Shown in pieces: positions 16-42,626 of a DNA stretch of 64,000 nucleotides. The notes under the pieces are model-generated. The model was not told the DNA's origin. It made no database searches and saw only the letters and a list, made by a program, of their open reading frames with translations. A program made the translations under genes and the position numbers. Origin of the DNA: a virus; the IMG/VR virus record IMGVR_UViG_3300013118_000772; one strand, given 5' to 3'. Every line of letters begins with the position of its first letter. Positions within the stretch are counted from its first letter, which is position 1.

Positions 16-1044
16 TTATATATTGCCTAAATGTTCTATTGTTTTGAATAGAGTAGAATCAATAACTAACTGTTCTGTGACACCTTCTAATAGGTCTCGA
101 TCTGCTTCTCTAAATAAAATTGATAATTTACCTAGTTTTTCTATTGTAATTAACTTATTTTTAATAACATAATTATACATTTTAACCAATAAAAATCTAC
201 AATCACCACCTTCCATAATATATTGTTTAATACCTTTTCTGGAAGCGAGCCAATTTTTGTCCTTAAATATAGACTTTACTATGAACAGGAATGTTCCTTC
301 AAAAGTATCCTGATATATATTGTCCATAGTAACTGTGCCATTATTTGCAACTGATTGTAATCTCATTATAGCCTGTCTAATATCGCCGTCACAATTGGAA
401 GATATATAATTTAATCCTTCTTCATTATATTGAAATTCTTCTTTTTTGCAAATATATTCTAATCTATTTTTTATATCTTCGTCCTTTAAAGGCAGAAATT
501 TATAGTTTACACATCTAGATTTTAAAGCATTTATTATTTTTGATATTTCATTGCAACATAATATAAACCTACAATTGGAAGAATATTTTTCCATTATTCT
601 TCTTAAAGCATGTTGTCCATCTTTTGTCATTGAATCTATTTCATCAAGCAAAATAATCCTAAATTCTTTCATTATAGGCATAGATTTAGATATATGTTTT
701 ATTTTTTCTCTAACAGTATTTATACCTCGTTCATCAGATGCGTTTAGTTCTGTAAAATTTACTTCAAACGTTTTACCCATTAATTCCTTTGATATAGCAT
801 GGGCTGCAGTAGTCTTTCCAACTCCAGGTCGACCGAAGAATAATAAATGATCAAAAGATCTTTTTTTAATTATAGACTTTAAGTCTGTTATTATATGTTC
901 CTGACCACATATTTCATCTACTTTTTGTGGACGATATTTTTCTACTAAAATTTCCATTTTTTTCACCTTTATTTCTTTTGTAAAGTAAACAACCATAACA
1001 AGCCTTTTCACAATACTCATTTTCTTTAAATGGACATAATCCAT
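16..1044 (-). CDS. rfcS: Replication factor C small subunit (AAA+ clamp loader)
   Basis: Walker A GRPGVGKT, Walker B LLDEID, SRC sensor motif (LKSRC), N-terminal EKYRPQKVDEI box typical of RFC; real start probably the internal Met near 957 (MEILVEKYRP). Confidence 0.85.
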   Translation of the reverse strand: MDYVHLKKMSIVKRLVMVVYFTKEIKVKKMEILVEKYRPQKVDEICGQEHIITDLKSIIKKRSFDHLLFFGRPGVGKTTAAHAISKELMGKTFEVNFTELNASDERGINTVREKIKHISKSMPIMKEFRIILLDEIDSMTKDGQHALRRIMEKYSSNCRFILCCNEISKIINALKSRCVNYKFLPLKDEDIKNRLEYICKKEEFQYNEEGLNYISSNCDGDIRQAIMRLQSVANNGTVTMDNIYQDTFEGTFLFIVKSIFKDKNWLASRKGIKQYIMEGGDCRFLLVKMYNYVIKNKLITIEKLGKLSILFREADRDLLEGVTEQLVIDSTLFKTIEHLGNI

Positions 1045-3169: not shown

Positions 3170-5716
3170 TCAATAATCAAAAAGACTTTGTTGTCCTTTT
3201 AAATCCAAAATCGACCAGCCCAATCCTTCAAAGATTCGCTCCATCTTACTAGTAGTTGCCTCTTTTACATGTTTGTCATAATCTAATATAGATTTTTCTG
3301 GGATATCATCATTGTTTCTAAAAGCTATTACATCTGTTTTTTGCATTCCTGGAACTCCCCTTACATATATTAATAAAAACTTTTCACCAACTTGAATATT
3401 TAGTTTAAGATTTTTATTTGAAAAAATAACTCCTCTGACTGTTGGTATATTTGTTTGATATTCATTTAATGGCTTTTTTAGTGGAGTAGGTAATCCTATT
3501 TCCTCAAAGCTATACTTATCGTTTCGTATATCTTTTTCCACATTTCTGACATATTTAACTATATTTTCTTTTGATTGTTCCTCTTCAATTAGCATTTTAA
3601 AAACACATTTCTGTGTTTTTCTTGCTATTATGGATTGATCAGATCTTACAACTTCAAATCCTACTATCTGCATTTTGCTAATTTCTTTACCTTTATAATA
3701 GGATAAGAGTCCAGCATATCTTTTCTTAGCTTGACCAAAAAATATTCTTTTATATGCTTTTTCAAAATTAATTTTGAAGTAATGCTGTTTACAGTTAAAT
3801 AGATTAGCAAAATCATCATAACTATCTTGTAAAAATTCAGCTATTTTATTTCCTTCTTCTAGTACTGGAATAAGCTCATTTTCCTGATATTTGGCTTTTA
3901 AAAAATTTGAATCTGTGTCCCCGTATAATGTATCATAATTATTTTTACTAGCTATATATCTGTTCCATAACACTGAATTCCTTCCAACAAAAGTAGTCGC
4001 TGCTGCTATATCTGGCATATATAACCTAAATCCATAATACCCTAACGTCCCATAAAATGAATTCATTAAGATTTTAAATGCAAATTGTTTAAATTCTAAT
4101 CTAATATATTCTGGACTATTATAATCATACTTATCTCTTTCTGCTTGTATATTTATTCTTTCATCGAATAAATATTCTAACATTCCTGGTAGGAATCCTT
4201 TTTTATCTTGACTAAAATAAACATTTTTATTTCTTACATGTTTTGATATAGTGGCAGGGAGCTCTATTTTAAAATCTTGTTTATGTAAATCCCAATTTGC
4301 TTTGAAAAATTCATCAAAAGCTGAACTAATTTTATCGTACCATCTATTATCAAATTTCTCCCCGTCCTTTGAAGAAATCATAAAGGTTGAATGATCTAAA
4401 TAAGGAATTTTTAAATGAACTGAATTTTCATTTCTCTTATCTTGCAAGGTTTCTGGACTAGCATTTAATGAAGAAATTATTTTAGGATACAATGAGGTAT
4501 AATCAAATACTACCGAGTTTTTATGTATTCCTTTTTTTGGTTTTAAAACAAATGCTCCGGCAAAACTTTGTTTTCTATGATGTTTTTTAGTAGGATGAAC
4601 AAATTTACCTTTTGTAAAGTGAAGCATAAATGAATCTACTACTCTTGAGTTATTAAACACATCATTAAAAGAACATTTACTTAATCTTCTTGTTTCATCA
4701 AATGTCTGAACAATCTTCTTTTTCTTTTCTATCCTATAAACTAACATTGTATCTTTTTTATTATAGGCAATGAATTTATCTAAATCATCCTGCCAAAGGC
4801 TATGTAAGCTTCCTGCATATTTTATTTTTTTTTCACCTAGTTCATGACTTGCGACATTATCTAATCTATAACTATCTAATTCTCCATATTGCATTTTTCT
4901 ATAAGCTTCTAGCATATCAAAAATAATTCTTCCTTTAACTAATACATCTCCATACTTATTTGTTAAAGCTACATTCATAGGTGATAACCTTCTATAATCC
5001 ATTCCTATACTATTCATTCTGTTAATAATATAGGCCATATCAAAATCTTTAACGTTCCACCCACTAAACATATCACAATCTGTTTTCTGGACGTATTTTA
5101 TAAATGATATTAACATATCTCGTTCATTATCAAAAAATAAAGTGAAATCTTTATACTTATAATCTTCTTCATTAACAGTTTTAAAACTAACTGTACCATT
5201 ATTAACAGTTTTCCTTTGAAGGTCTTGTCTCCAGACAAAAGTAATACATTTCTTATCCATATTATTAAAACATGTAATAGCATTTATTGGATCACTTGCA
5301 TGTTCTATATCTGGAAATCTATTATTGGAAGCAACTTCAATATCAAGATAGGTAACAGAGAGAGGGACTCCTTTTAAATCATTATATTTATCTATTATAT
5401 ATCTGGTAGGATATAAAACATCTGCCTCAAAACTTTCATCTACTTTTTCCCTTAATTCTTTAACATAGGCAGGAATTTTTGTAATAACTTTTACTACATT
5501 CCTTCCTTTTATATCTTTATATTTTACTTCTTCTATTTTTAATACTCTTTTATCCTTTCTTAATTTTTCAACTTCGTTTTTTAAAATATAAAAATATGGC
5601 TTAAAATCATTATCTCTTATTATTCTTCTTTCACCTTTTTCGTTTCTACCAAATATTACTATGGTAGGAACTTCATTAGTTACTTCATACTCTACTTGTA
5701 TAGGAGTTACAGCAAT
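3170..5716 (-). CDS. polB: Family B DNA polymerase with 3-5 exonuclease domain
   Basis: Exo I LDIEV (in the upstream extension), Exo II NVKDFDMAY, Exo III YNKKD, motif A DYTSLYPKII, motif B KILMNSFYG, motif C YGDTDS. The ORF track starts at Met 5260, but the frame continues 152 codons upstream with clear archaeal PolB N-terminal similarity (FKPYFYIL). Proposed start is ATT at 5714-5716 behind SD AGGTGA. Confidence 0.85.
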   Translation of the reverse strand: MAVTPIQVEYEVTNEVPTIVIFGRNEKGERRIIRDNDFKPYFYILKNEVEKLRKDKRVLKIEEVKYKDIKGRNVVKVITKIPAYVKELREKVDESFEADVLYPTRYIIDKYNDLKGVPLSVTYLDIEVASNNRFPDIEHASDPINAITCFNNMDKKCITFVWRQDLQRKTVNNGTVSFKTVNEEDYKYKDFTLFFDNERDMLISFIKYVQKTDCDMFSGWNVKDFDMAYIINRMNSIGMDYRRLSPMNVALTNKYGDVLVKGRIIFDMLEAYRKMQYGELDSYRLDNVASHELGEKKIKYAGSLHSLWQDDLDKFIAYNKKDTMLVYRIEKKKKIVQTFDETRRLSKCSFNDVFNNSRVVDSFMLHFTKGKFVHPTKKHHRKQSFAGAFVLKPKKGIHKNSVVFDYTSLYPKIISSLNASPETLQDKRNENSVHLKIPYLDHSTFMISSKDGEKFDNRWYDKISSAFDEFFKANWDLHKQDFKIELPATISKHVRNKNVYFSQDKKGFLPGMLEYLFDERINIQAERDKYDYNSPEYIRLEFKQFAFKILMNSFYGTLGYYGFRLYMPDIAAATTFVGRNSVLWNRYIASKNNYDTLYGDTDSNFLKAKYQENELIPVLEEGNKIAEFLQDSYDDFANLFNCKQHYFKINFEKAYKRIFFGQAKKRYAGLLSYYKGKEISKMQIVGFEVVRSDQSIIARKTQKCVFKMLIEEEQSKENIVKYVRNVEKDIRNDKYSFEEIGLPTPLKKPLNEYQTNIPTVRGVIFSNKNLKLNIQVGEKFLLIYVRGVPGMQKTDVIAFRNNDDIPEKSILDYDKHVKEATTSKMERIFEGLGWSILDLKGQQSLFDY

Positions 5717-5844: not shown

Positions 5845-7005
5845 CTAATAATCTAATAATCCTGCTGTATTGACTTTACCATTATCTTTTGAAAAATGAG
5901 ATTGAAATTTAACACATGCTTTATCAAATCCCTTATCTAAACTATAATCTATAAATTCAATAGCTAATTGTACTTCTTTATCAAAAAATTTACGTATGAA
6001 GTTTCTGTAAACTTCTTTATCATCTTTAAGACTATTACAAAGTTTAGTATATTGAATCAATTGATAAAGATTATGCAATGATATTATACCACCAGGTGCA
6101 CTACCTTGTGAGGATAACATATTTATACTATCAATTTGACTACATACAGGACACATGCAAGGTATATTTTTTATATTTGCTTTATTTGCCTGACCAAAGA
6201 ATAATTCCATTTTACCAAAATATAAAGGAAGAAAATATTTTCTTTGCATTGATCCCTGAGCCCAAGCACTGCTATCTGCAGTAATATTATCTACATATCT
6301 TGCTAAGTAAGCTAAAACAGGAATTGTTCTACTTCCACTGACAGCTAAAAAATGAAAGTTATTACTATGACCTTTATTGTACATATACATACCTTGGTAG
6401 GCTAATAACATTGGCTTTGCCTCTGGTTTACATCCAAACGACCAACCTGTTTTTGTCATATTAGGATATTTTGAAGCCATATTATACCAGTCGTCCATTT
6501 TTCTTTTATTAAATCCATAACCTTGAAAAATATTATATAGTTTTAAAGGTCTTTCAGGATTAGATTCTAAATATTTAGTATATAAATCTTCTGCTATTTT
6601 AAAATTTTCATTGCTAATATTCATAGACTTTTTCCATGCTTTTTCATCCGCATCAAAAGGAGGATAATCTAAAGGAAAACCAATATCACAATTTTCAACT
6701 TGCCAATCAAAAACTTCTTTTGGGTCTATTTCTATATCCTGACCTTTCCATTCTTTTAGGCTCATATTTTGAAATCCGCCACTATCCCCCATAAAAATAA
6801 TATCATCTTTTATTTTTAATAACTTTCGTATATTTTCTTTTTTCATACCATAATGAGCGGAAATTAAAATATAAGGATATTTAAATAAAGATTCTTTCTT
6901 CCACCATGTTAGGTCTTTTTCACCATCTTTAAAATGACCAGAAATTCGTTTATTTGTACTACATGCGCCAGGAACTTCTGCTGGAACGAAATTAAAGTTA
7001 CCCAT
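5845..7005 (-). CDS. dpdA: tRNA-guanine transglycosylase family enzyme, DpdA-like candidate DNA 7-deazaguanine transglycosylase
   Basis: TGT catalytic motif MGDSGGFQNMSL and zinc site CMCPVCSQ...H; 386 aa with no PUA domain; embedded in a preQ0 synthesis operon with no queF/queA or tRNA context. Confidence 0.7.
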   Translation of the reverse strand: MGNFNFVPAEVPGACSTNKRISGHFKDGEKDLTWWKKESLFKYPYILISAHYGMKKENIRKLLKIKDDIIFMGDSGGFQNMSLKEWKGQDIEIDPKEVFDWQVENCDIGFPLDYPPFDADEKAWKKSMNISNENFKIAEDLYTKYLESNPERPLKLYNIFQGYGFNKRKMDDWYNMASKYPNMTKTGWSFGCKPEAKPMLLAYQGMYMYNKGHSNNFHFLAVSGSRTIPVLAYLARYVDNITADSSAWAQGSMQRKYFLPLYFGKMELFFGQANKANIKNIPCMCPVCSQIDSINMLSSQGSAPGGIISLHNLYQLIQYTKLCNSLKDDKEVYRNFIRKFFDKEVQLAIEFIDYSLDKGFDKACVKFQSHFSKDNGKVNTAGLLDY

Positions 7006-7006
7006 T

Positions 7007-8353
7007 CTATTTCAACTCCTTTCTTATTGCATAAAGTTCATTTTCAAAAAATTCAAATATATCATCAGGAAGTATTATTACATGGTCGTCGTCTATTTGT
7101 ATGTCAAATATCTCTTGATGCCATACAGGGTCAATCCTTCCTAATGTTTGGTACTTATTTGAATATACATAAGCAAGTGTTTCTGCTTCCTTTTTTCCAT
7201 CTTCTGAATTAAAAATAGCATCTAAGTCATCTGTATTAAGTATTTCCCTATGACTACTTAATCCAATTCTTTCTGGGTCTTCTTTTAATCCTTCTAGCAT
7301 AAAAGCTATTCTTTGGCATTTGTCACATTCATCACAAGGAAGCCACATTCCGTTTTTACTTTTCTTTGGAGTAAAACAACTCATTTGATATTGATATAGA
7401 TTAAATATATCATTTCGTATGAATATCTTTTGAATTGCTGATTCTGATAAATTATACACTAATGAAAATACTTGCATATTAGTACCGATTTCTTTAAGAT
7501 AATGACTTATCTTCCTTTCAAAATGGGTTGATTGATCAAAATTATGACCAAGTATTTCATGACCTTTAAATTCAAATGGAACAGTACAATCAAATTCATT
7601 TCCAAAAACTAGATTTCTAATTCCATTAATATTGCAATAAGCCAATTCAATAAAAGCTAGAATAGGTAAATATAAATTATTCTTACCCCATTTAGGTGCA
7701 ATGAAATCAAAAATTTCAAATATATTGGTTTGTATTTTATCTGACCAGGGAATTGCTTTATACATCATTTCACTTGGATCAAATCGATTATCATCAATAA
7801 ATAGAGGATAAGTTCTATAATTCAACTTTTGTAAAGTAGTAAAAGTCATTGTACTTTCTTTACCTCCACTCATGCTAATAGCATATTTATCTTCTTTATT
7901 TAGCTTATATTTAATGGGATCTAATAAAGGAAATTTTTCATATCCTTCCAAGTTAATATCTTTAAATTCTTTGAATTTATTTGTGAATGTAGTTCTCATT
8001 TGGAAATCTAGATCCAAAAGAAATGAATGATCTAATGAATTTAATTTAAATAGATGTCCTTTACTTAATGATTCCCAATTAGTTAAACATTCATTTTTAG
8101 TAAATAAACCTATATTTAATAATTGAACGTGAACTGACATAGCTAATAATTTTAGACTAATCTTACTATTTTCTAAATTACAATATTTTGGAAAGTTAAT
8201 ATAAATTGGTATAATAATAGAATCATTGTTGTACTGTAACATATATTTACAAGTAAATATATTTTTCATAATTTTTAAATCAAATAATGTTACTCTATTA
8301 AATTTAAAATTAGGATTTTCTTCTATATGTTTAATTAATTCTTTTTTATTCAT
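7007..8353 (-). CDS. QueC-family PP-loop ATPase paralog with about 150-aa N-terminal domain of unknown function
   Basis: Variant PP-loop ISMSGGKEST and QueC-like C-terminal zinc cluster C-x13-CDECDKC; start ATG overlaps queC stop (ATGA). Confidence 0.6.
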   Translation of the reverse strand: MNKKELIKHIEENPNFKFNRVTLFDLKIMKNIFTCKYMLQYNNDSIIIPIYINFPKYCNLENSKISLKLLAMSVHVQLLNIGLFTKNECLTNWESLSKGHLFKLNSLDHSFLLDLDFQMRTTFTNKFKEFKDINLEGYEKFPLLDPIKYKLNKEDKYAISMSGGKESTMTFTTLQKLNYRTYPLFIDDNRFDPSEMMYKAIPWSDKIQTNIFEIFDFIAPKWGKNNLYLPILAFIELAYCNINGIRNLVFGNEFDCTVPFEFKGHEILGHNFDQSTHFERKISHYLKEIGTNMQVFSLVYNLSESAIQKIFIRNDIFNLYQYQMSCFTPKKSKNGMWLPCDECDKCQRIAFMLEGLKEDPERIGLSSHREILNTDDLDAIFNSEDGKKEAETLAYVYSNKYQTLGRIDPVWHQEIFDIQIDDDHVIILPDDIFEFFENELYAIRKELK

Positions 8354-9078
8354 TTAGTTAACCTCTTTGCCCTTCTAGCTAATGCAGCTAAAAAATCTTC
8401 TCTTTCATCTTTTCTTGACATTAATTTTTTATTTGCTTCCTCAGTTAGATTTTCAAATGGATCTTTTTCAAATATTTCATGATAGCTTATATTATTTAAC
8501 TCCAAAGCTACTGCTTTTCTTATACATGCTCTACAAACACCACATTCATGTATTTTGCCACTATAACAACTTCTAGCAAAATGTTTTAGATGTGAAACAA
8601 TGCCACCATTAGCTATATATTGCTTAACTATTTGTGCTTTAGTCAAGTGTTTAAATGGCATCTTAATACTAAAAGGGTAATTTTTTTCAAATACTTTATG
8701 TTTATCTATGGCAAAATAATTTAACATTCCTTCTACTTGTGCTTTGAAAATAAAATCCTTATCTTTTGTGCTATCTCCAGCAGTAAAACCCATATAAATT
8801 TCATTTCCATAATTAGCTGCAATTAAAGTCATAATAGAATTTCTATGAGGTATTATTTTATTTTCCATTTCCCATTCTACTAAAGGTAGTTTAAGTATTC
8901 TAACTTTATCTTTTATTTCTTCTGGCATAGCACTTAAATTTTCAAGTTCAATTTTATTGTCTTCTGTTTCTAAATCAAAAAAGATAATTTCATCATATAT
9001 ATCATTAAACAATAAACACCAGCTGTCTAGTCCACCAGAAAATAATAATATCTTTTTAACTTTTAAACTGTCCTGCAT
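8350..9078 (-). CDS. queC: 7-cyano-7-deazaguanine synthase
   Basis: PP-loop LFSGGLDS, zinc motif CYSGKIHECGVCRAC (C-x7-C-x2-C-x2-C), 242 aa. Confidence 0.85.
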   Translation of the reverse strand: MQDSLKVKKILLFSGGLDSWCLLFNDIYDEIIFFDLETEDNKIELENLSAMPEEIKDKVRILKLPLVEWEMENKIIPHRNSIMTLIAANYGNEIYMGFTAGDSTKDKDFIFKAQVEGMLNYFAIDKHKVFEKNYPFSIKMPFKHLTKAQIVKQYIANGGIVSHLKHFARSCYSGKIHECGVCRACIRKAVALELNNISYHEIFEKDPFENLTEEANKKLMSRKDEREDFLAALARRAKRLTK

Positions 9079-9431
9079 TTTATCTTTCCTCCTGAAAGTT
9101 CTCTTATTCCAAAATTTATTTCTTTATCATTATCTATATATTCGTCTATATGATATATTTCACAAAATGCTTTTTTGAATTGAACTACATAAGTATTATG
9201 CCACATCTTTAAAGGATTGTAAATTATCTTTATTTTGTCTGGATTCATTCCAAATCTTTTCAACGTTTTAAGAGTAATTTTTTTATCTTTATAATTTCTA
9301 GCTGTTATAATTATTTTAATATCTTCTATATTTACCTTTGGATTTAACCTATTAAATCTCTTTTTTAACCAATGATTTTTAAATTTAGATATAATTATAG
9401 TCCCATCCAAATCATAAGCTATTTTTTTCAT
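9063..9431 (-). CDS. Small HAD-superfamily phosphatase (possible nucleotidase)
   Basis: HAD motif I AYDLDGTI (DxDGT) at N-terminus; 122 aa. Confidence 0.5.
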   Translation of the reverse strand: MKKIAYDLDGTIIISKFKNHWLKKRFNRLNPKVNIEDIKIIITARNYKDKKITLKTLKRFGMNPDKIKIIYNPLKMWHNTYVVQFKKAFCEIYHIDEYIDNDKEINFGIRELSGGKIKCRTV

Positions 9432-9805
9432 CTTAATCCTTTTTCTAATAAAAAATTTATTATATCATCCAAACCTTCGAAAATTATACTTGAATAATTT
9501 ATTAACCATGGACTTCTCCATTCATCATGAACAAAAACATAAACTTTCTTTCTCAAGCTTTTGGCATAAAACATTTCCATTGCTGTACCCCAACCAGGTT
9601 TTGTTCCGTCAACAATTAAAATATTGGATTGTCTAATATGTTTTCTATCTTTATTAACAATAGCTCTATGTTTACCTTCTTGATATTTATAATCCATTGG
9701 ATTTATTATTTTAAATTTTTTTCTAAGTTTAATTTTAACTCTTCTTCTCCAACTTTCCCTGAAGGGATCACCATCAAGAGTTCCACTGAGATATATTGTT
9801 TTCAT
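9428..9805 (-). CDS. Nucleoside 2-deoxyribosyltransferase / Rcl(DNPH1)-like protein
   Basis: N-terminal IYLSGTL and central LIVDGTKPGWGTAMEMFYA resemble NDT/Rcl family signatures (YLAGP...D-G-T-x-x-E-x-G-x-A); 125 aa. Confidence 0.4.
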   Translation of the reverse strand: MKTIYLSGTLDGDPFRESWRRRVKIKLRKKFKIINPMDYKYQEGKHRAIVNKDRKHIRQSNILIVDGTKPGWGTAMEMFYAKSLRKKVYVFVHDEWRSPWLINYSSIIFEGLDDIINFLLEKGLR

Positions 9806-9874
9806 TAATCCTCACCTACATCTACTGACATAATATTTCCATAATCATCTTCTACAAAGATAATATTTGGGTAG

Positions 9875-10474
9875 TTATCTTCCATTATGAACCCCATTAG
9901 CAAATCTTAAAAATTCCGCTCTTGTTTCTAAATTGTCTTTAAACGCTCCTCTTAGTTCAATTGTGGTCATATATCCCTCTTTTTTAACTCCTCTTATTGA
10001 TTTGCATAAATGTTTTGCTTTTAAAACCAATGCCATGCCATACGGTTGATTATTTTTTCCATTACTCAACTCTTGCCATAAGTAATCTAAAATATCTTTT
10101 GCTAATCGTTCTTGTATTTGTAATCTAGCTGAAAAATAATCTACTACTCTTGCAACTTTACTCAACCCCAATAATTTTCCATTAGAATTTGGTAAATAAG
10201 CAAAATAATAATTCCCTAAAAACCCAATAATATGATGCTCACAAAAGCTATTAAAATTTCCTTCGTCCATAATCATTTGATCATATGTTACACCATCTTT
10301 TCCATTTCTGAATGTAGTTACTTTTGGTAGTTGTTTTGGATCATATCCTCTAAATATTTCTTTCCACATATTAACTACTCTTTTAGGTGTATCTTTTAAA
10401 CCTTCACGATTTGGGTCTTCGCCTATAAACTCTAACATGCTTCTAACAATCCACCTCATATTATCTTCATCCAT
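9875..10474 (-). CDS. folE: GTP cyclohydrolase I
   Basis: FCEHHIIGFLG and LLGLSKVARVVDYFSARLQIQERL match FolE core; 199 aa. Confidence 0.8.
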   Translation of the reverse strand: MDEDNMRWIVRSMLEFIGEDPNREGLKDTPKRVVNMWKEIFRGYDPKQLPKVTTFRNGKDGVTYDQMIMDEGNFNSFCEHHIIGFLGNYYFAYLPNSNGKLLGLSKVARVVDYFSARLQIQERLAKDILDYLWQELSNGKNNQPYGMALVLKAKHLCKSIRGVKKEGYMTTIELRGAFKDNLETRAEFLRFANGVHNGR

Positions 10475-11092
10475 TTATTTTCCCCTCCGTTTAACTCCCC
10501 ATACATCTACATGTAATCTTGGGCTATATCTTATTTTATGTTTGATACAAAAATCCCAAACTTTTCTTGATATTTTTTTATTTTTTTCTTTATCAGATGT
10601 AGTCAATGGCATTAATAATGATGCTTTTTTTGCCATTTCTTTATTAACTTTATCCAGATCAGATGCTATTTTAATATCATAAAAATATCCAAGCCAAAAA
10701 TTATTATAACTCATTAATTGCATCACTCGATTTAATGTATTTGCATCTTTTGGAGATACGCTAATATAATCAAAATAAGATAATTTATCCCTAGTTAATA
10801 AATCTCCATTAGTTTCTAAATGATGACTAAAACTAGGGAGCTGGCTAATTATTTGTGTCATTTCTATAAACTGTAAAAGTCCCTCACCTCCAGTCCAAAC
10901 TACTGTATCTGTCCCTGATTTTTTTATAGTATTGATAATTTTTTTAATGTTAATTTCATCTCCTTCTTTATGATATTTTGTATCACACCAAGAACATGAT
11001 CTGTTACAGCCGCTTAACCGAATAAAAATAGCTGGAATTCCTACAAATTTTCCTTCGCCTTGTAATGAGACAAACATTTCGTTGATTTTCAT
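10475..11092 (-). CDS. queE: 7-carboxy-7-deazaguanine synthase (radical SAM)
   Basis: N-terminal MFVSLQGEG and radical SAM cluster CNRSCSWCDT; 205 aa. Confidence 0.85.
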   Translation of the reverse strand: MKINEMFVSLQGEGKFVGIPAIFIRLSGCNRSCSWCDTKYHKEGDEINIKKIINTIKKSGTDTVVWTGGEGLLQFIEMTQIISQLPSFSHHLETNGDLLTRDKLSYFDYISVSPKDANTLNRVMQLMSYNNFWLGYFYDIKIASDLDKVNKEMAKKASLLMPLTTSDKEKNKKISRKVWDFCIKHKIRYSPRLHVDVWGVKRRGK

Positions 11093-11328
11093 TTCTTTTT
11101 ACCTTTATCCGGGTTAGTCCTATCCCTGGTTATAGTAGTTATGTGCTTTATAATTATCTTCCTTTTGTCAGTCATAATAACAATATTTAAATGATTAAAG
11201 TTCATGCCTCTTATTTTACCTTTAATAGATATTACTTCTTTCCCTTCAAGATATTTAACTTCACATTCCTTACCAATGAATCTTTTTATCTCATCTAAAT
11301 ACGGGTTAACTTCTTTTCCCTTCATCAT
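11089..11328 (-). CDS. Hypothetical small basic protein, possibly Sm-like fold
   Basis: 79 aa; GKIRGMNFNHLNIVIMTD loosely resembles an Sm1 motif; lies between queE and queD. Confidence 0.25.
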   Translation of the reverse strand: MMKGKEVNPYLDEIKRFIGKECEVKYLEGKEVISIKGKIRGMNFNHLNIVIMTDKRKIIIKHITTITRDRTNPDKGKKK

Positions 11329-11770
11329 TTATATTCACCTCTGCATAACAAGTTGGAGTTTCATATAGTCTTATTCTTGAAAGTTTTAAATGCCTCGGTA
11401 GATTTATATCTAAAACATCAAATATATAATTAACCATATTTTCAGCAGTAACATTTTCTTTTAATCTTAATACTTTCTGATCAATTTTTTCTTCCAAATA
11501 TTTAGCAATATCTTCGTCTACGATAGATAAACTATTTATAATTAATGCATGATCAAATTTATCTACTACATATTCTTTAACTACTTCCTTAAAATCTCCA
11601 AAATCTATTACCATTCCATCATCTGATTCAAAAAATTTAAATTTATCTTGTATCAATCCCATTACTTCTACTTCTAATAAATAACTATGTCCATGAATTG
11701 ACCTACATTTTCCTTTATGGTTAACTAATCTATGTGCACATTCCCATCTAAATATTTTACATATTTTCAT
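11306..11770 (-). CDS. queD: 6-carboxy-5,6,7,8-tetrahydropterin synthase
   Basis: CAHRLVNHKGKCRSIHGHSY (Cx-HGH zinc motif); ORF-track start at 11869 is probably an over-extension; likely start MKICKIFRWECAHR. Confidence 0.8.
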   Translation of the reverse strand: MKICKIFRWECAHRLVNHKGKCRSIHGHSYLLEVEVMGLIQDKFKFFESDDGMVIDFGDFKEVVKEYVVDKFDHALIINSLSIVDEDIAKYLEEKIDQKVLRLKENVTAENMVNYIFDVLDINLPRHLKLSRIRLYETPTCYAEVNINDEGKRS

Positions 11771-16260: not shown

Positions 16261-16441
16261 TTTTAATTTCCTCCACTTTTTCTGGCTTTATTAATGTCTC
16301 TTTTTTATCTATTTTACCTTTAAATTCAAGAACAATATCCTCTTGTGCTTTTATTCCATATTTATTTCGAATATCAGATAGAATAGTAACTTGATTAATG
16401 TCATTTACTTTTGCTCTGAATTCTGTTTCTTTTAATTTCAT
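16253..16441 (-). CDS. Hypothetical small protein (62 aa), first gene of minus-strand block
   Basis: ORF with stop-start overlap to downstream gene; SD-like GGAGGA upstream on minus strand. Confidence 0.3.
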   Translation of the reverse strand: MKLKETEFRAKVNDINQVTILSDIRNKYGIKAQEDIVLEFKGKIDKKETLIKPEKVEEIKNG

Positions 16442-16544
16442 TTACATTCCTCCTAATTTAGAACTTTTAGAATTACTTTTTGCCATAAAATAAATTAAAT
16501 TAATGTTATATTTAAATTTATTGTATTCAGGTATATACCTCAAC

Positions 16545-16568
16545 TAAATCATTAAATCACTAAATCAT
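16545..16568. repeat. Tandem 8-bp repeat TAAATCAT/TAAATCAC/TAAATCAT in divergent promoter region
   Basis: Direct reading of the 16441-16718 intergenic spacer. Confidence 0.6.
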
Positions 16569-16718
16569 TAAAAAAACAATAAATTTAAATAGTTGATTAA
16601 TTTTAAATAAAATTAGGATAAAAAATGAGAAATAAGAAATCAAATCTAGAAAATCACAATAATAATATTAATAATAATCTATTTTATAATAGGTCAAAAA
16701 TGACAAGGAGGACAGTAA

Positions 16719-17767: not shown

Positions 17768-19201
17768 ATGGATTGTGTAAAATATCTGGAACAATTAGAT
17801 AATGAGAGTTCAACAAATAAAAAAATAGAAATTTTAATTAATGGACTTAAAAATAGTAGTGATTTAGAGGAATATTTAAGATTAACATTTGGAGAAAGAA
17901 TATTTAATGTTGCTTCCAAAACTATTTCTAATTCGTTAGATATAAAAAATAAAACTAGTCATTCTGATATAGGATCTAAAATTGAATGGTGGCTAGAAAA
18001 TAAATCTGGTCAATCTAACTTGTTAATATTTTCAGGAATACAAAAAAAGAAAGAATATAAAGAATATAAAGAATTTAAAAATTTACTTAGTGAGTTAGAA
18101 GATATAAGGGGCTTAGATGCTCAGAATTTAATAAGGAACTTCTTCTTGAATTGTAAATCTAAAGATGCAAAATGGTATTCAAGATGTTTAGTTAAAGATC
18201 TTTCATGTGGAATTTTGACAAAAACAATAAATAAAGCTTTTAAAACACTCAACTTAAAAGAAATTGAATCATTTAACGTAGCTTTATATGAAAAGATAGA
18301 CGGATATGATATTAATATAGATTATTCCATCCAAAAAGATAGACTAATTTCAAAATTAAATGAGTCAGTTACAATGCCTATATATGCTGAACCTAAATAT
18401 GATGGAGTTCGATTAATAGTTAGAAACTGTATATTTGGAAGAAATAGAAAAACAGAGGCAATAACAAGAAACGGTAAAAAAATCGAAACTGTATATTTCT
18501 TACAAAGAGAATTCGATAGAGTTTTTGAAGGAATTAAATTAGAACTTGATGGAGAATTAATGGCAAAGGACTTTCAAACATTAATGACTCAGGTACATAG
18601 AAAAAATGATTTAAGTATGACTATGCCAAGACAATATATAGTTTTTGATATTAGGACATATAAGGGTAATGATATAACTTATTTAAGATATGAAGAAAGA
18701 AGAAAGATTTTAGAAGATATATTTAGCAATATTCAATCTGATATAATTTTATTGGTCAAAAATAAAAAACTAGAAAATGCAGAAGATGTATGTGATATTT
18801 ATGAAAAGTCAGTAAAAGCAAAATATGAAGGTATTATGCTAAAGTTTAATGTTCCTTATGAAAAGGAAGATAAACGAAATAACGGAATTAAATTAAAACC
18901 AATTAAAACAGCTGATTTGGAAGTATTTGATTTTGTAAAAGGAGAAAAAGGTAGACATTCTGGAAAAATATCTAGTCTTATGGTAATTGATAAATCAACA
19001 ACAGTCATTAGCAAAGTAGGAAGTGGATTAACGGATGATATAATTGAAAAAATAACTAATGATCCTGATAAATATAAACATACTATTGTAGAAATATGCT
19101 ATGATTCAATTACAAAACCAAATGAAGAAGGTAAAAAAAGTCTAAGATTTCCTAGATTTATATCATTTAGATTTGATAAAAATGAGGCAGATAGCCTTTA
19201 A
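17768..19201 (+). CDS. lig: ATP-dependent DNA ligase
   Basis: Adenylation motif I EPKYDGVR (KxDGxR); 477 aa with a long C-terminal region after the adenylation domain. Confidence 0.8.
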   Translation: MDCVKYLEQLDNESSTNKKIEILINGLKNSSDLEEYLRLTFGERIFNVASKTISNSLDIKNKTSHSDIGSKIEWWLENKSGQSNLLIFSGIQKKKEYKEYKEFKNLLSELEDIRGLDAQNLIRNFFLNCKSKDAKWYSRCLVKDLSCGILTKTINKAFKTLNLKEIESFNVALYEKIDGYDINIDYSIQKDRLISKLNESVTMPIYAEPKYDGVRLIVRNCIFGRNRKTEAITRNGKKIETVYFLQREFDRVFEGIKLELDGELMAKDFQTLMTQVHRKNDLSMTMPRQYIVFDIRTYKGNDITYLRYEERRKILEDIFSNIQSDIILLVKNKKLENAEDVCDIYEKSVKAKYEGIMLKFNVPYEKEDKRNNGIKLKPIKTADLEVFDFVKGEKGRHSGKISSLMVIDKSTTVISKVGSGLTDDIIEKITNDPDKYKHTIVEICYDSITKPNEEGKKSLRFPRFISFRFDKNEADSL

Positions 19202-40618: not shown

Positions 40619-41248
40619 ATGGTAACAAAAACATTAAGAAATATTATACTTTCAGCTTTTGGAATATTTTTTGTAATTATACTTCTTAGAGTTACTAATG
40701 GACTTGAACATATATGGAAATTTATAGATAGATTTGGTTCATATATATTATTGCTAGCTTTATTAGTATCGATAGGAATAGCTGCTTATTTCTATTTTTA
40801 TAAGAAAACAAAGCAAGAAAATCAAGATCAAGTCAAAAAATCATGGGAATTCATATGTAATTGGTGGGATGAAACAATGGGAATGTCAGAAGGACTTAAA
40901 TTGGAAGATTCTTTCATGAAAGAAGGATATTATGATTCAAGTCAAGGACAAACGGAAAGATTTTTTGGATGGAATGTAACTAAAATGAGTACATCAGAAA
41001 GAATAATTTTCATAGTAGGAACCAGTCCTTTTAGAGTAGTTAGATTTATTAACAGACCCAACATTGGAGAACAGGAAGATCCTTTCGAATCTTTTTATAG
41101 TGTCCCACCTAAACCTGTGCCAGGATTTAATGATTTTGCTATGCAGAAATATGCTGAAATGGAAAGAAGAAAAAAGGAAACTCCAGAAGAAAATGATGAT
41201 GCTGTTGATCCTTTATCTGGGGATTGGGTAGATGGAGGGGACTTATAA
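40619..41248 (+). CDS. Membrane protein (209 aa, 2 TM)
   Basis: Two N-terminal hydrophobic helices; acidic C-terminus. Confidence 0.35.
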   Translation: MVTKTLRNIILSAFGIFFVIILLRVTNGLEHIWKFIDRFGSYILLLALLVSIGIAAYFYFYKKTKQENQDQVKKSWEFICNWWDETMGMSEGLKLEDSFMKEGYYDSSQGQTERFFGWNVTKMSTSERIIFIVGTSPFRVVRFINRPNIGEQEDPFESFYSVPPKPVPGFNDFAMQKYAEMERRKKETPEENDDAVDPLSGDWVDGGDL

Positions 41249-42626
41249 TATGGTTATTGAAAATTTATTTATCGGTAAAAAGGAATTTTTATCATACCAG
41301 AAAGTTTTTAATGCCAATGAATCTGTTATAACTGACATGGTAAGATTTCAAAAACCCGAAATTAAATATTCGATGAGTGCTATTCCTATTGGAAGGATTA
41401 GAAAGAGTTTAAAGCCACATGTAATTGATTTATCCCATTCAAAAAGAATATTAATATTAGGTATGACAGGGAGCGGAAAATCCGTTCTATGTGGAAGTAT
41501 CATGGATAGATTTAAAAAATCTGGGGGGTTATTAAGTATTTTTGATCTTAAAGGAGAATATATAGTTAAATCTGTTCCTTTAAAGGATAAATTTTCTGAT
41601 AAATATATAACCAATGCTAATGGAGAAAAGGTCAGAACATATTTGTTTAATGAGGAAACTCCTCAGGGTTTTGAGTTAAAAAGTTATTATCCTGTTTTTC
41701 TTAAAAATATAATGGCTGGATCAACATTAAAAGATAAAAATAGACCTTTATTTGAAAATGAATCTTTATGTCAATTTGGAATGGAAAGTTTAACCAAAAC
41801 AGATTTTTTTACTTTTTTTGAAACTATCACTAATAGAAATTCATCGTATTTTGAATATTTAGAAGAACTATGGTTGGGCATTGAAAGAGATAGTCTTTCT
41901 ACATGGGAAGACATAGTTAGTTTTATTGAAGATCATGATGTATTTAGTAAAAGTACTAGAAAAAATCTTATTAGAAATCTGACCATTTTAAAGGATAATG
42001 AAGTGCTTGGAAATGCTTATGATCCTCCAGACTTAATAACTGATTTAAAAGAAAATAGAATAGGAATTCTTAATTTAAAGGGTATAATCAATTTACCTGT
42101 TACAACTAATCCTGCTCTAGTATATGTAAATATATTACTACGTAAAATTTATAATTCTAAAGTAATAGGAGATGTTAGTACCAAAAAACATAATTTAATC
42201 TTTGTAGATGAAGTAAATAAATTTGTCCCTAGATTAGGAAGTACCCCTTCAAAGGATGAATTTTTAAAGTTATTGGATTTAGTAAGAAGTGAACATATAA
42301 GTATGATGTATTCTACTCAGGATTGGAGAAGAATCCCTGAAACTCTAATAAAACAAGCTGATTATGTTTTCTTACCATTTAACATTGATTTAGATGATTT
42401 AGCTGAAATAGTTAAATTAGTTTTACCATCAGAATATCATACTCCTCAAACTTTTAAAACTAAAATGTCTCACCTTCAATCTATGATGAAGATTTATAAA
42501 GATGGAAGAAGGGATTGGTTAATGATAGATAAGATAAATAAGAAAAGGGTTTTCTTTACGCCAGTTTTGCCCCTTTCTTATTTTCTAGAGGAAGGAGAAA
42601 AAGCAGAAAATGTACTTTCATCTTGA
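41232..42626 (+). CDS. HerA/FtsK-type P-loop ATPase, candidate genome-packaging ATPase
   Basis: Walker A LILGMTGSGKS, Walker B LIFVDEVNKF; 464 aa. Confidence 0.6.
   Translation: MEGTYNMVIENLFIGKKEFLSYQKVFNANESVITDMVRFQKPEIKYSMSAIPIGRIRKSLKPHVIDLSHSKRILILGMTGSGKSVLCGSIMDRFKKSGGLLSIFDLKGEYIVKSVPLKDKFSDKYITNANGEKVRTYLFNEETPQGFELKSYYPVFLKNIMAGSTLKDKNRPLFENESLCQFGMESLTKTDFFTFFETITNRNSSYFEYLEELWLGIERDSLSTWEDIVSFIEDHDVFSKSTRKNLIRNLTILKDNEVLGNAYDPPDLITDLKENRIGILNLKGIINLPVTTNPALVYVNILLRKIYNSKVIGDVSTKKHNLIFVDEVNKFVPRLGSTPSKDEFLKLLDLVRSEHISMMYSTQDWRRIPETLIKQADYVFLPFNIDLDDLAEIVKLVLPSEYHTPQTFKTKMSHLQSMMKIYKDGRRDWLMIDKINKKRVFFTPVLPLSYFLEEGEKAENVLSS

Follow-up and report, generated by a model that had tools for sequence, protein, structure and literature searches.

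An NDT/DNPH1-superfamily protein encoded within viral 7-deazaguanine gene clusters

Introduction

The current model of 7-deazaguanine DNA modification consists of synthesis of the base by FolE, QueD, QueE and QueC, followed by its post-replicative exchange into DNA by DpdA, and it does not account for an accessory enzyme that acts on deoxynucleotides. A stretch of 64,000 nucleotides from the IMG/VR virus record IMGVR_UViG_3300013118_000772 (hereafter the window) raises the question of what such an enzyme might do. Between its queC and folE genes lie two small open reading frames (ORFs), encoding 125 and 122 amino acids (aa), which a first-pass annotation had correctly located and had read as a nucleoside 2′-deoxyribosyltransferase (NDT)/Rcl-like enzyme paired with a small HAD hydrolase:

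9428–9805, minus strand: NDT/DNPH1-superfamily protein, 125 aa (MKTIYLSGTLDGD...DGTKPGWGTAMEMFYA...; PF05014; AF2/Foldseek)
9063–9431, minus strand: HAD-like-motif protein, 122 aa (MKKIAYDLDGTIII...), putative, by motifs alone

We find that the 125-aa protein is a genuine member of the NDT/DNPH1 superfamily and that its gene recurs within deazaguanine clusters. The reading that we prefer, tentatively and with rather less than even confidence, is that it is a dGMP-directed glycosidase/transferase resembling DNPH1 and DmtZ, an accessory of viral 7-deazaguanine cassettes by which deoxyguanylate would be linked to the making of 7-deazaguanine. DmtZ, an NDT-like enzyme of phages, acts on dAMP as a hydrolase and passes 2-deoxyribose-5-phosphate on to 2-aminoadenine (Z) (PMC12884076; NAR, February 2026).

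The 125-aa protein has the fold and catalytic residues of the NDT/DNPH1 superfamily

Pfam family PF05014 (Nuc_deoxyrib_tr) matched residues 4–95 of the 125-aa protein with 37.9 bits against a gathering score of 28.8 (E 2.2e-9), and an identical database protein carries the same precomputed match. Word-based protein searches with the 125-aa and 122-aa proteins returned self matches only. An exhaustive HMMER search recovered 675 cluster representatives of the subfamily at E ≤ 1e-3; among 150 of these, most were 110–160 aa in length and a minority were longer.

An AlphaFold2 (AF2) model calculated from an alignment of 102 representatives (pLDDT 93.1, pTM 0.88) has a flavodoxin-like alpha/beta fold, with five beta-alpha units forming a five-stranded parallel sheet. 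The best 50 Foldseek matches to this model were all NDT, DNPH1/Rcl or BcmB (a CMP glycosidase), with E-values down to 6e-8, and the top structures were the NDT 7o62 (TM 0.83), 2a0k and DNPH1. When the family profile was compared with the Protein Data Bank (PDB), the matches were YtoQ (E 4.6e-8), Trypanosoma brucei NDT (TbNDT), Rcl, MilB/BcmB and DNPH1.

The catalytic triad is intact in the window protein and comprises Tyr5, Asp53 and Glu77, the last being the nucleophile within a G-x-x-x-E motif. Each of these residues is conserved in 101 of the 102 representatives, and the triad is in register with those of Rcl, TbNDT and DmtZ. Pro36 and Arg20 (each 102/102), Gly8 and Gly73 are invariant, and Trp19, Trp100 (101/102), Thr74, Met76 and His104 are nearly so. 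The NDT/Rcl-like call of the first-pass annotation is thus borne out by the Pfam score, the Foldseek matches and the triad. The proteins form a new subfamily, or a variant, within a known superfamily.

The gene lies within a full 7-deazaguanine cassette

According to the ORF list of the window, the 125-aa ORF is part of a closely packed minus-strand operon at ∼5.8–11.9 kb, in the order QueD-QueE-FolE-[125 aa]-[122 aa]-QueC-PP-loop-DpdA. The other members are as follows:

11306–11770, minus strand: QueD (6-carboxytetrahydropterin synthase; PF01242, E 3.6e-30), in a frame open to 11869
11089–11328, minus strand: ORF of 79 aa, family unassigned, between QueD and QueE with 4-nt overlaps
10475–11092, minus strand: QueE (PF04055 and Fer4_12)
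9875–10474, minus strand: FolE (GTP cyclohydrolase I; PF01227, E 1.9e-50), directly upstream of the NDT-like gene
9803–9896, minus strand: micro-ORF of 26–30 codons separating FolE from the NDT-like gene and overlapping the start of the latter with its stop (TAATG)
8350–9078, minus strand: QueC-type PP-loop ATPase, 242 aa (PF06508, E 3.2e-16; phrog_1550, E 1e-23)
7007–8353, minus strand: second PP-loop ATPase (SGGKES), 448 aa, MurL-like/DUF6395-like (NF041275 MurL, E 2e-7)
5845–7005, minus strand: divergent DpdA-type DNA guanine transglycosylase of the TGT superfamily (PF01702, 28.8 bits against a cut-off of 26.3)

FolE, QueD, QueE, QueC and the DpdA-type transglycosylase all have Pfam matches, so that the window holds the full phage 7-deazaguanine cassette. 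The DpdA assignment is also supported by TIGR00432 (E 1.9e-10) and TIGR00449; the protein was not placed in any of DpdA1–4, its sole matches being ∼25% identical TGT-domain proteins of jumbo phages. Its presence agrees with the rule that every deazaguanine-modified virus encodes a DpdA (Cui 2023).

The 125-aa and 122-aa ORFs share 4 nt (ATGA) and are translationally coupled, the 122-aa ORF and the QueC start overlap by 16 nt, and the Shine-Dalgarno-like sequences GGTGAGG and GGAGG stand ahead of the 125-aa ORF and QueC starts. Identical gene content and order were found on independent metagenome contigs of 69–77 kb. On sister contigs QueD is called as a 154-aa product, and on two of these (L004 and L005) a gene is called at the place of the micro-ORF. 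A DNA search of GenBank phages with the cluster gave no near-identical match. The 79-aa ORF was considered as a homologue of the ∼83-aa ORFs beside QueE in Aminobacter phage Erebus and Rhizobium phage RHph_X3_2, and was rejected as such on an unconvincing alignment.

The window shares all five core genes with the canonical phage cassette (FolE-QueD-QueE-QueC/Gat-QueC-DpdA; Hutinet 2019, Cui 2023). In contrast, the PF05014 gene, the small HAD-like gene and the second, MurL-like PP-loop gene are not listed for that cassette, and none of the three is mentioned in the main texts of Hutinet 2019 and Cui 2023 or in the text supplements of Hutinet 2019. A literature search combining deoxyribosyltransferase or PF05014 with deazaguanine or DpdA gave unrelated mentions and one generic remark, that undetected 2′-deoxyribosyltransferases cannot be ruled out (Hutinet 2019). 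In keeping with the earlier statement that the combination of the two genes is foreign to the canonical cassettes, the literature searched does not mention a link of the NDT-like gene with deazaguanine clusters.

The NDT-like gene recurs beside deazaguanine genes

A pattern scan of IMG/VR gave 80 loci with an NDT-like gene, whose neighbours were identified by profile search. A locus was scored as linked where QueD, QueE, FolE, QueC, DpdA or phrog_15826 lay within 3 kb. By this definition 50 of the 80 loci were deazaguanine-linked, corresponding to 23–24 of 36 lineages after collapsing at ≥70% identity (L074 included). These counts were recomputed after the matches to ‘DpdA’ had been split into two classes: phrog_887/7068, which are queuine-tRNA-ribosyltransferase-like and represent true DpdA; and phrog_15826, which had been recruited by the iterated DpdA profile. 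The phrog_15826 proteins are ∼210 aa long, have an LDNGA[FY] motif and no Pfam match, and may be a short undescribed DpdA-like family. They adjoin QueD and the NDT-like gene in ∼20 IMG/VR loci, examples being:

L009, 1155–1784: phrog_15826 protein
L041, 4047–4709: phrog_15826 protein
L048, 2788–3462: phrog_15826 protein
L052, 3183–3833: phrog_15826 protein

The usual gene orders were QueD-NDT-FolE-DpdA, QueD-NDT-DpdA, QueE-NDT-DpdA and P15826-QueD-NDT. Using tblastn, the arrangement QueD-NDT-FolE, with overlapping genes, was found in Aminobacter phage Erebus (NDT-like protein QJD54350.1), and QueE-x-NDT-QueC in Rhizobium phage RHph_X3_2 (QWY83379.1). A Cellvibrionaceae metagenome-assembled genome (MAG) has the full set, QueE-QueC-QueD-NDT-FolE...DpdA. 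Among seven look-ups of unbiased representatives there were two further cassettes, QueD-QueE-PRT-FolE-NDT-GatQueC-MTase... (L110/L111) and QueC-PRT::FolE-NDT-DpdA-like (L114), where PRT is a phosphoribosyltransferase and MTase a methyltransferase.

Two features of these cassettes bear on function. Firstly, the NDT-like gene directly adjoins FolE in 10 of the 11 FolE-containing cluster types, with gaps of ≤124 nt and in both orders. Secondly, a Gpt-like PRT (VDDIxDSGxT) lies by FolE and the NDT-like gene in three lineages (L023, L110/L111 and L114):

L114, 1566–2477: Gpt-like PRT, fused to FolE
L023, 8359–9285: Gpt-like PRT, fused to FolE
L110, 4040–4426: Gpt-like PRT, immediately upstream of FolE

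Nearly all linked cassettes also contain DpdA or a DpdA-like gene, which speaks against the earlier suggestion that the NDT-like enzyme might replace DpdA. The place of the NDT-like gene in the deazaguanine cluster is not accidental. A gene of the Vut_1/YhhQ family, a preQ0/preQ1 transporter family, neighbours one NDT-like gene in a locus that was scored as not deazaguanine-linked.

The pocket residues suggest a deoxynucleotide substrate

Enzymes of the superfamily differ in how they hold the 5′ end of the substrate: NDTs bind the 5′-OH with Asp/Asn, whereas the hydrolases and DmtZ use small uncharged residues (PMC12884076). In Rcl the phosphate is bound by Ser87, a Ser of the second subunit and the backbone of Ile18-Arg19-Gly20 (PMC3834327). 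At the position six residues before Glu77 (E−6), the 102 representatives have Ser (83), Gly (15) or Thr (3), and never Asp. Gly71 occupies this position in the window protein, which also has Ser98 towards the C-terminus and the loop G8-T-L10-D-G12; S98 is kept in 87 of the 102 representatives and the beta1 loop is G8-x-[IML]10-x-G12, giving a family consensus at the phosphate site of PSWGTAME, S98 and G8-P-I10-x-G12. In the alignment of the profile with PDB sequences, the E−6 and loop positions match QPS87LGVGYE and GSIRGG of Rcl; T. brucei NDT has Asp at E−6. The hallmark of true nucleoside transferases, Asp at E−6 together with a C-terminal Asn, is therefore missing.

The transferase hallmark Pro is present: Pro36, which follows beta2, aligns with a Pro in TbNDT, the 7m5h NDT and YtoQ, and with Asp in Rcl. 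In addition, the window protein has a Trp100 lid in a Ser-x-Trp context, and the conserved Tyr argues for 2′-deoxy substrates, since the active-site Tyr excludes ribo substrates (PMC12884076). Judged by these residues, the pattern of the subfamily is deoxynucleotide-type plus the transferase Pro36, a hybrid as in DmtZ, and the 125-aa protein is best read as a deoxynucleotide glycosidase/transferase of the DNPH1/DmtZ type. Assignment by profile gives PF05014 above its cut-off; the pocket residues resemble those of the deoxynucleotide (DNPH1) type, and Pro36 is of the transferase type. From these positions we infer the substrate (dGMP), its 5′-phosphate status, the 2′-deoxy specificity and the way in which the intermediate is resolved (by water or by a base acceptor).

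Comparison with the known relatives places the protein between the established groups. DNPH1/Rcl proteins share the fold (Foldseek TM 0.74–0.78), the triad, the Ser at E−6, the C-terminal Ser and the G-x-I-x-G phosphate loop; they differ in having no conserved Pro (Asp is aligned in Rcl) and are only 13–16% identical, the window protein has Gly71 for Ser, and DNPH1 is a eukaryotic enzyme that sanitises hmdUMP. The NDTs (class I PDT/class II NDT; 7o62, 2a0k and 1f8x) are the best structural matches and share PF05014, the Pro after beta2 and covalent Glu chemistry. Unlike the 125-aa protein, they have Asp at E−6 and a C-terminal Asn for the 5′-OH, act on nucleosides and are ∼155 aa long. YtoQ of Bacillus (PDB 8of6), the best profile-to-PDB match, has W-x-T-A-M and G-P-M motifs in common with the family, but its residue at the position of the nucleophilic Glu is Asp (WNTAMDA); the titles and abstracts of papers naming YtoQ give no function and no link to viruses or deazaguanine.

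A proposed route from dGMP to the GTP used by FolE

On our preferred reading, Glu77, placed by Tyr5 and Asp53, would attack C1′ of a 2′-deoxypurine 5′-monophosphate, most plausibly dGMP from host-DNA breakdown. This would give a covalent 2-deoxyribose-5-phosphate–enzyme intermediate and release free guanine. A Gpt-type PRT, host-encoded in the case of the window virus and virus-encoded in some relatives, would then salvage the guanine to GMP and on to GTP, the substrate of the adjacent FolE. Deoxyguanylate would in this way become feedstock for preQ0/7-deazaguanine, which DpdA would insert into DNA.

What has been observed in support of this proposal is membership of the superfamily, the fold with its intact triad, conserved synteny with FolE, QueD and DpdA, and the co-occurrence of a PRT. 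A supply role would explain the FolE adjacency, the PRT::FolE fusions and the existence of housekeeping homologues. It also fits the GTP demand of heavy replacement of G, which on a rough estimate is comparable to the GTP pool of the cell.

Several observations weigh against the proposal. The substrate, the phosphate status and the outcome (hydrolysis or transfer) are read from few positions of an alignment; at E−6 the window protein departs from the usual Ser and has Gly; the invariant Pro36, a transferase hallmark said to exclude water, favours transfer over hydrolysis; and the window has no PRT gene of its own. Three deazaguanine-linked sequences served as seeds for the IMG/VR sample, in which a bias is possible. 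No deazaguanine genes were present in the available flanks for 12–13 of the 36 lineages, five of the seven unbiased representatives and the representatives closest to the window protein (P0002, P0003, P0005 and P0025). Many cassettes have no FolE (QueD-NDT-DpdA), so the FolE adjacency could be inherited synteny rather than functional coupling. The canonical studied phages (9g, CAjan and Rosebush) apparently do not have the gene, tblastn giving five phage records only. Finally, on archaeal MAG chromosomes the NDT-like gene stands beside genes for HD, Macro, GNAT/ATPase, endonuclease V and CTP-dependent riboflavin kinase proteins. The same cellular homologues suggest a housekeeping role in the nucleotide pool:

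L095, 6334–9514: NDT-like gene and neighbours, archaeal MAG chromosome
L097, 3240–5224: NDT-like gene and neighbours, archaeal MAG chromosome

Possible transfer to a 7-deazaguanine base, as proposed by analogy with DmtZ

The strongest alternative is that the enzyme acts as DmtZ does, transferring deoxyribose 5-phosphate from dGMP onto a free 7-deazaguanine base (preQ0, CDG or a derivative). Host kinases would then convert the resulting modified deoxynucleoside monophosphate to the triphosphate and the viral family-B DNA polymerase would incorporate it, before and in addition to exchange by DpdA. Both the transfer and these later steps seem to us doubtful, though they deserve serious consideration. 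There is a precedent in DmtZ of the Z-genome phages (PMC12884076), the gene is embedded among enzymes producing the acceptor base, and an undetected deoxyribosyltransferase is what Hutinet 2019 left room for.

We compared the family with DmtZ of Gordonia phage Ghobes (AOE44404.1); a DmtZ-DutZ of Arthrobacter phage Wayne is also known. Both are small, single-domain, phage-encoded NDT-superfamily enzymes within a non-canonical-purine DNA pathway. The DmtZ hybrid pattern is common to the subfamily: a Tyr/Asp(Asn)/Glu triad, the Pro after beta2 (P36, 102/102), a small uncharged phosphate site with no Asp/Asn 5′-OH binders, and a Ser-x-Trp lid ∼21–23 residues past the Glu. The hhalign match was weak (E 0.0019, probability 14%, 104 aligned columns), which counts against the transfer route, but the hallmark residues were in register, pairing Y5 with Y6, D53 with N77, E77 with E103 and W100 with W124. 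The relatedness is thus at superfamily level only, and does not establish the 125-aa protein as a member of the DmtZ family proper. The two also differ in context (PurZ0/DutZ for DmtZ, FolE/QueD/DpdA here), in purine (A/Z, against presumably G/7-deazaG) and in residues, DmtZ having Asn77 and Asp12 and the 125-aa family Trp19-Arg20 and a near-invariant His104.

The pathway context also argues against transfer. With a DpdA or DpdA-like gene in nearly all linked cassettes a second insertion route is not required, and all known 7-deazaguanine DNA modifications are reported to be post-replicative (Cui 2023). The scanned ORFs, those of at least 110 aa in the first 45 kb of the window, include no gene for a deoxynucleoside monophosphate (dNMP) kinase, dGTPase, MazG or Dut-like protein, and neither the cluster nor the scanned ORFs include a PurZ or Dut-like gene. 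The PRT::FolE fusions are better explained by recycling of guanine to GTP.

A possible generic or clean-up function

A further alternative is that the protein is a generic enzyme of the replication module, either a general dNMP hydrolase or an anti-defence enzyme degrading nucleotides, and that its co-location with deazaguanine genes reflects clustering of nucleotide-metabolism genes. The 12–13 of 36 lineages with replication genes alone nearby (AAA_24, RNaseH-like, PD-(D/E)XK, DnaB and primase) fit this explanation, as do the closest representatives of the window protein. In contrast, clustering of this kind would not readily account for the many independent lineages, with either gene order, in which the gene is inserted between QueD and FolE or DpdA and stop codons overlap start codons. 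DpdA cassettes are rare among viruses, ∼180 such viruses being known in 2020 (Kot et al.). We regard a generic function as improbable.

Salvage or clean-up is, in our assessment, decidedly improbable. The enzyme would hydrolyse 7-deaza-dGMP from degraded modified DNA, either to recover the scarce base for DpdA or to sanitise the pool in the way known for DNPH1 and hmdUMP. DNPH1 is described as a sanitiser of modified dNMPs, salvage of the Z base was proposed by the authors of the DmtZ study (PMC12884076), the archaeal homologues have genes for endonuclease V, HD and Macro proteins nearby, and the viral gene is linked to DpdA. On the other side, little modified DNA is expected to be degraded during a lytic cycle, the tight FolE adjacency and the PRT fusions are left unexplained, and direct support is absent.

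The 122-aa protein co-occurs with QueC and a second PP-loop protein

The first-pass annotation had called the 122-aa protein a small HAD hydrolase. The motifs on which this was based are present: D7-L-D9-G-T11, I-I-T43-A-R45, K86/K87 and D100-N-D102. Relative to the strands of an AF2 model, DLDGT comes after strand 1 (residues 4–7), T43 of IIITAR after strand 2 (39–42) and D-N-D after strand 4. In an alignment of five homologues, D7, D9, G10, I41, I42, T43 and R45 are invariant; motif IV varies, being D-N-D in the window, D-N-N in the homologue P0152 and E-D-D in remote relatives. Profile, PDB and fold searches gave the call no support. Neither the 122-aa protein nor its relatives matched any HAD family in Pfam or NCBIfam at E ≤ 1, and sequence and profile searches of the PDB with the 122-aa protein gave no match. 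Matches to PHROG families were weak (a polynucleotide kinase family, E 0.0014; phrog_1238, ‘phosphoheptose isomerase’, E 0.024) and were not reproduced for P0152. The two-sequence AF2 model was poor (pLDDT 64.7); Foldseek found nothing for it at E ≤ 0.001, and some fold searches pointed to RNase-H-like folds.

The only clear homologue is P0152 (120 aa, 44% identical), from a second viral lineage (L086/L090) with the order CxxCxxCC protein-[120 aa]-QueC-PP-loop-DpdA-like and no NDT-like gene. The PP-loop protein of L086 (373 aa) is 29% identical to the 448-aa protein of the window (E 7e-44) and its DpdA-like gene is 32% identical to the window DpdA. No other homologue of recognisable identity was found: a scan of viral_contigs gave none, a metagenome scan returned the L086 lineage alone, and the protein is absent at all of the ∼90 other NDT-like loci. 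The supposed HAD–NDT pair is not supported, and the 122-aa protein does not regularly accompany the NDT-like enzyme. In L086, a 118-aa gene preceding the HAD-like gene was considered as an NDT homologue and rejected; it encodes the CxxCxxCC protein.

A remote relative occurs in Menderavirus phages of Stenotrophomonas (motifs FDIDGV, IIITGR and FEDDP; pairwise E 1.4e-5). It sits between genes for myo-inositol-1-phosphate synthase and a QueC-like protein; after the QueC-like gene come those for a protein of 403 aa and a QueE-like protein, and FolE is two genes upstream. In Caulobacter phage Cr30 and Ralstonia phage RP13 the relatives lie beside inositol-phosphate synthase only. The Stenotrophomonas block suggests that a deazaguanine pathway includes, or adjoins, a step related to inositol. 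The loci are:

L104, 6877–10572: Stenotrophomonas phage vB_SmaM_Bhz51
L105, 3119–5378: Cr30
L106, 3399–5375: RP13

An annotation of the Stenotrophomonas homologue as a PRT gave rise to the idea that the 122-aa protein is a minimal PRT, which was rejected, as hhalign to the PRT of L110 shows no similarity. Judged by context, the 122-aa protein is plausibly a small cap-less phosphatase; it would likely act with QueC and the PP-loop gene as one sub-module, or in a sugar-phosphate step. The 448-aa PP-loop protein, with its SGGKES motif, C-terminal CDECDKC and weak similarity to MurL and DUF6395, is a candidate for an enzyme that would make a new derivative of 7-deazaguanine. Its slot in the Stenotrophomonas phages is taken by a protein of ∼400 aa that is unrelated to it, no similarity being detectable.

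The nucleoside-level route of the first-pass annotation, in which the HAD enzyme would convert dGMP to dG, the NDT would swap guanine for a preQ0-type base and kinases would rebuild the triphosphate, is the least supported explanation and highly unlikely: the two genes are adjacent and translationally coupled, the HAD-like motifs I–IV are correctly ordered relative to the predicted strands and true nucleoside transferases do exist within the superfamily, but the 122-aa protein goes with QueC and the PP-loop gene, its HAD membership lacks statistical or structural support, its remote relatives by myo-inositol-1-phosphate synthase suggest sugar-phosphate substrates, the scanned ORFs include no deoxynucleoside kinase, and the NDT-like subfamily is without Asp/Asn 5′-OH binders and carries instead the two Ser (Gly71/Ser98 in the window protein) and the G-x-I-x-G loop seen in dNMP-binding DNPH1, with which dephosphorylation beforehand would be unnecessary.

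The window virus is probably archaeal

The window has a low GC content (27%) and archaeal-type replication genes (RFC-like ATPase, family-B DNA polymerase, ATP-dependent ligase and HerA/FtsK-type ATPase):

16–1044, minus strand: RFC-like clamp-loader subunit
3170–5260: family-B DNA polymerase
17768–19201, plus strand: ATP-dependent DNA ligase
41232–42626, plus strand: HerA/FtsK-type ATPase

Among cellular homologues of the NDT-like protein, the closest come from archaeal MAGs (Asgard and DPANN), and the virus is probably archaeal. It is possibly not tailed; no Pfam match to terminase or portal was found at 35–45 kb of the window. At ∼16300–16700 there is a divergent strand switch with a change of sign in GC skew, and the lowest GC content of the window (0.226) is at 16–18 kb; this region may be a promoter or origin.

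Discussion

The position and conservation of the NDT-like gene suggest that the deoxyguanylate pool is linked to the modification of DNA with deazaguanine, in a conserved pathway context not described before. The hypothesis is open to direct test, as the gene is present in two cultured phages, Aminobacter phage Erebus and Rhizobium phage RHph_X3_2.

A separate lead is the trio of QueC, MurL-like PP-loop protein and small HAD-like protein, which might give rise to additional derivatives of 7-deazaguanine that have yet to be described. It was seen in the window and in the second metagenomic lineage, and in a looser form, with a QueC-like protein, the unrelated ∼400-aa protein and a HAD-like protein, in the Stenotrophomonas myoviruses.

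If the enzyme is a DmtZ-like transferase, there would be a pre-replicative route and a new biocatalyst for 7-deazapurine deoxynucleotides. We are inclined to doubt that many viruses have such a polymerase-mediated route to 7-deazaguanine DNA alongside DpdA; if they do, it would overturn the view that all 7-deazaguanine DNA modifications are post-replicative. If instead, as we tentatively prefer, the enzyme is a dGMP glycosidase, it would show that viruses re-route the deoxyguanylate of host DNA into GTP and so pay the large precursor cost of modifying their own.

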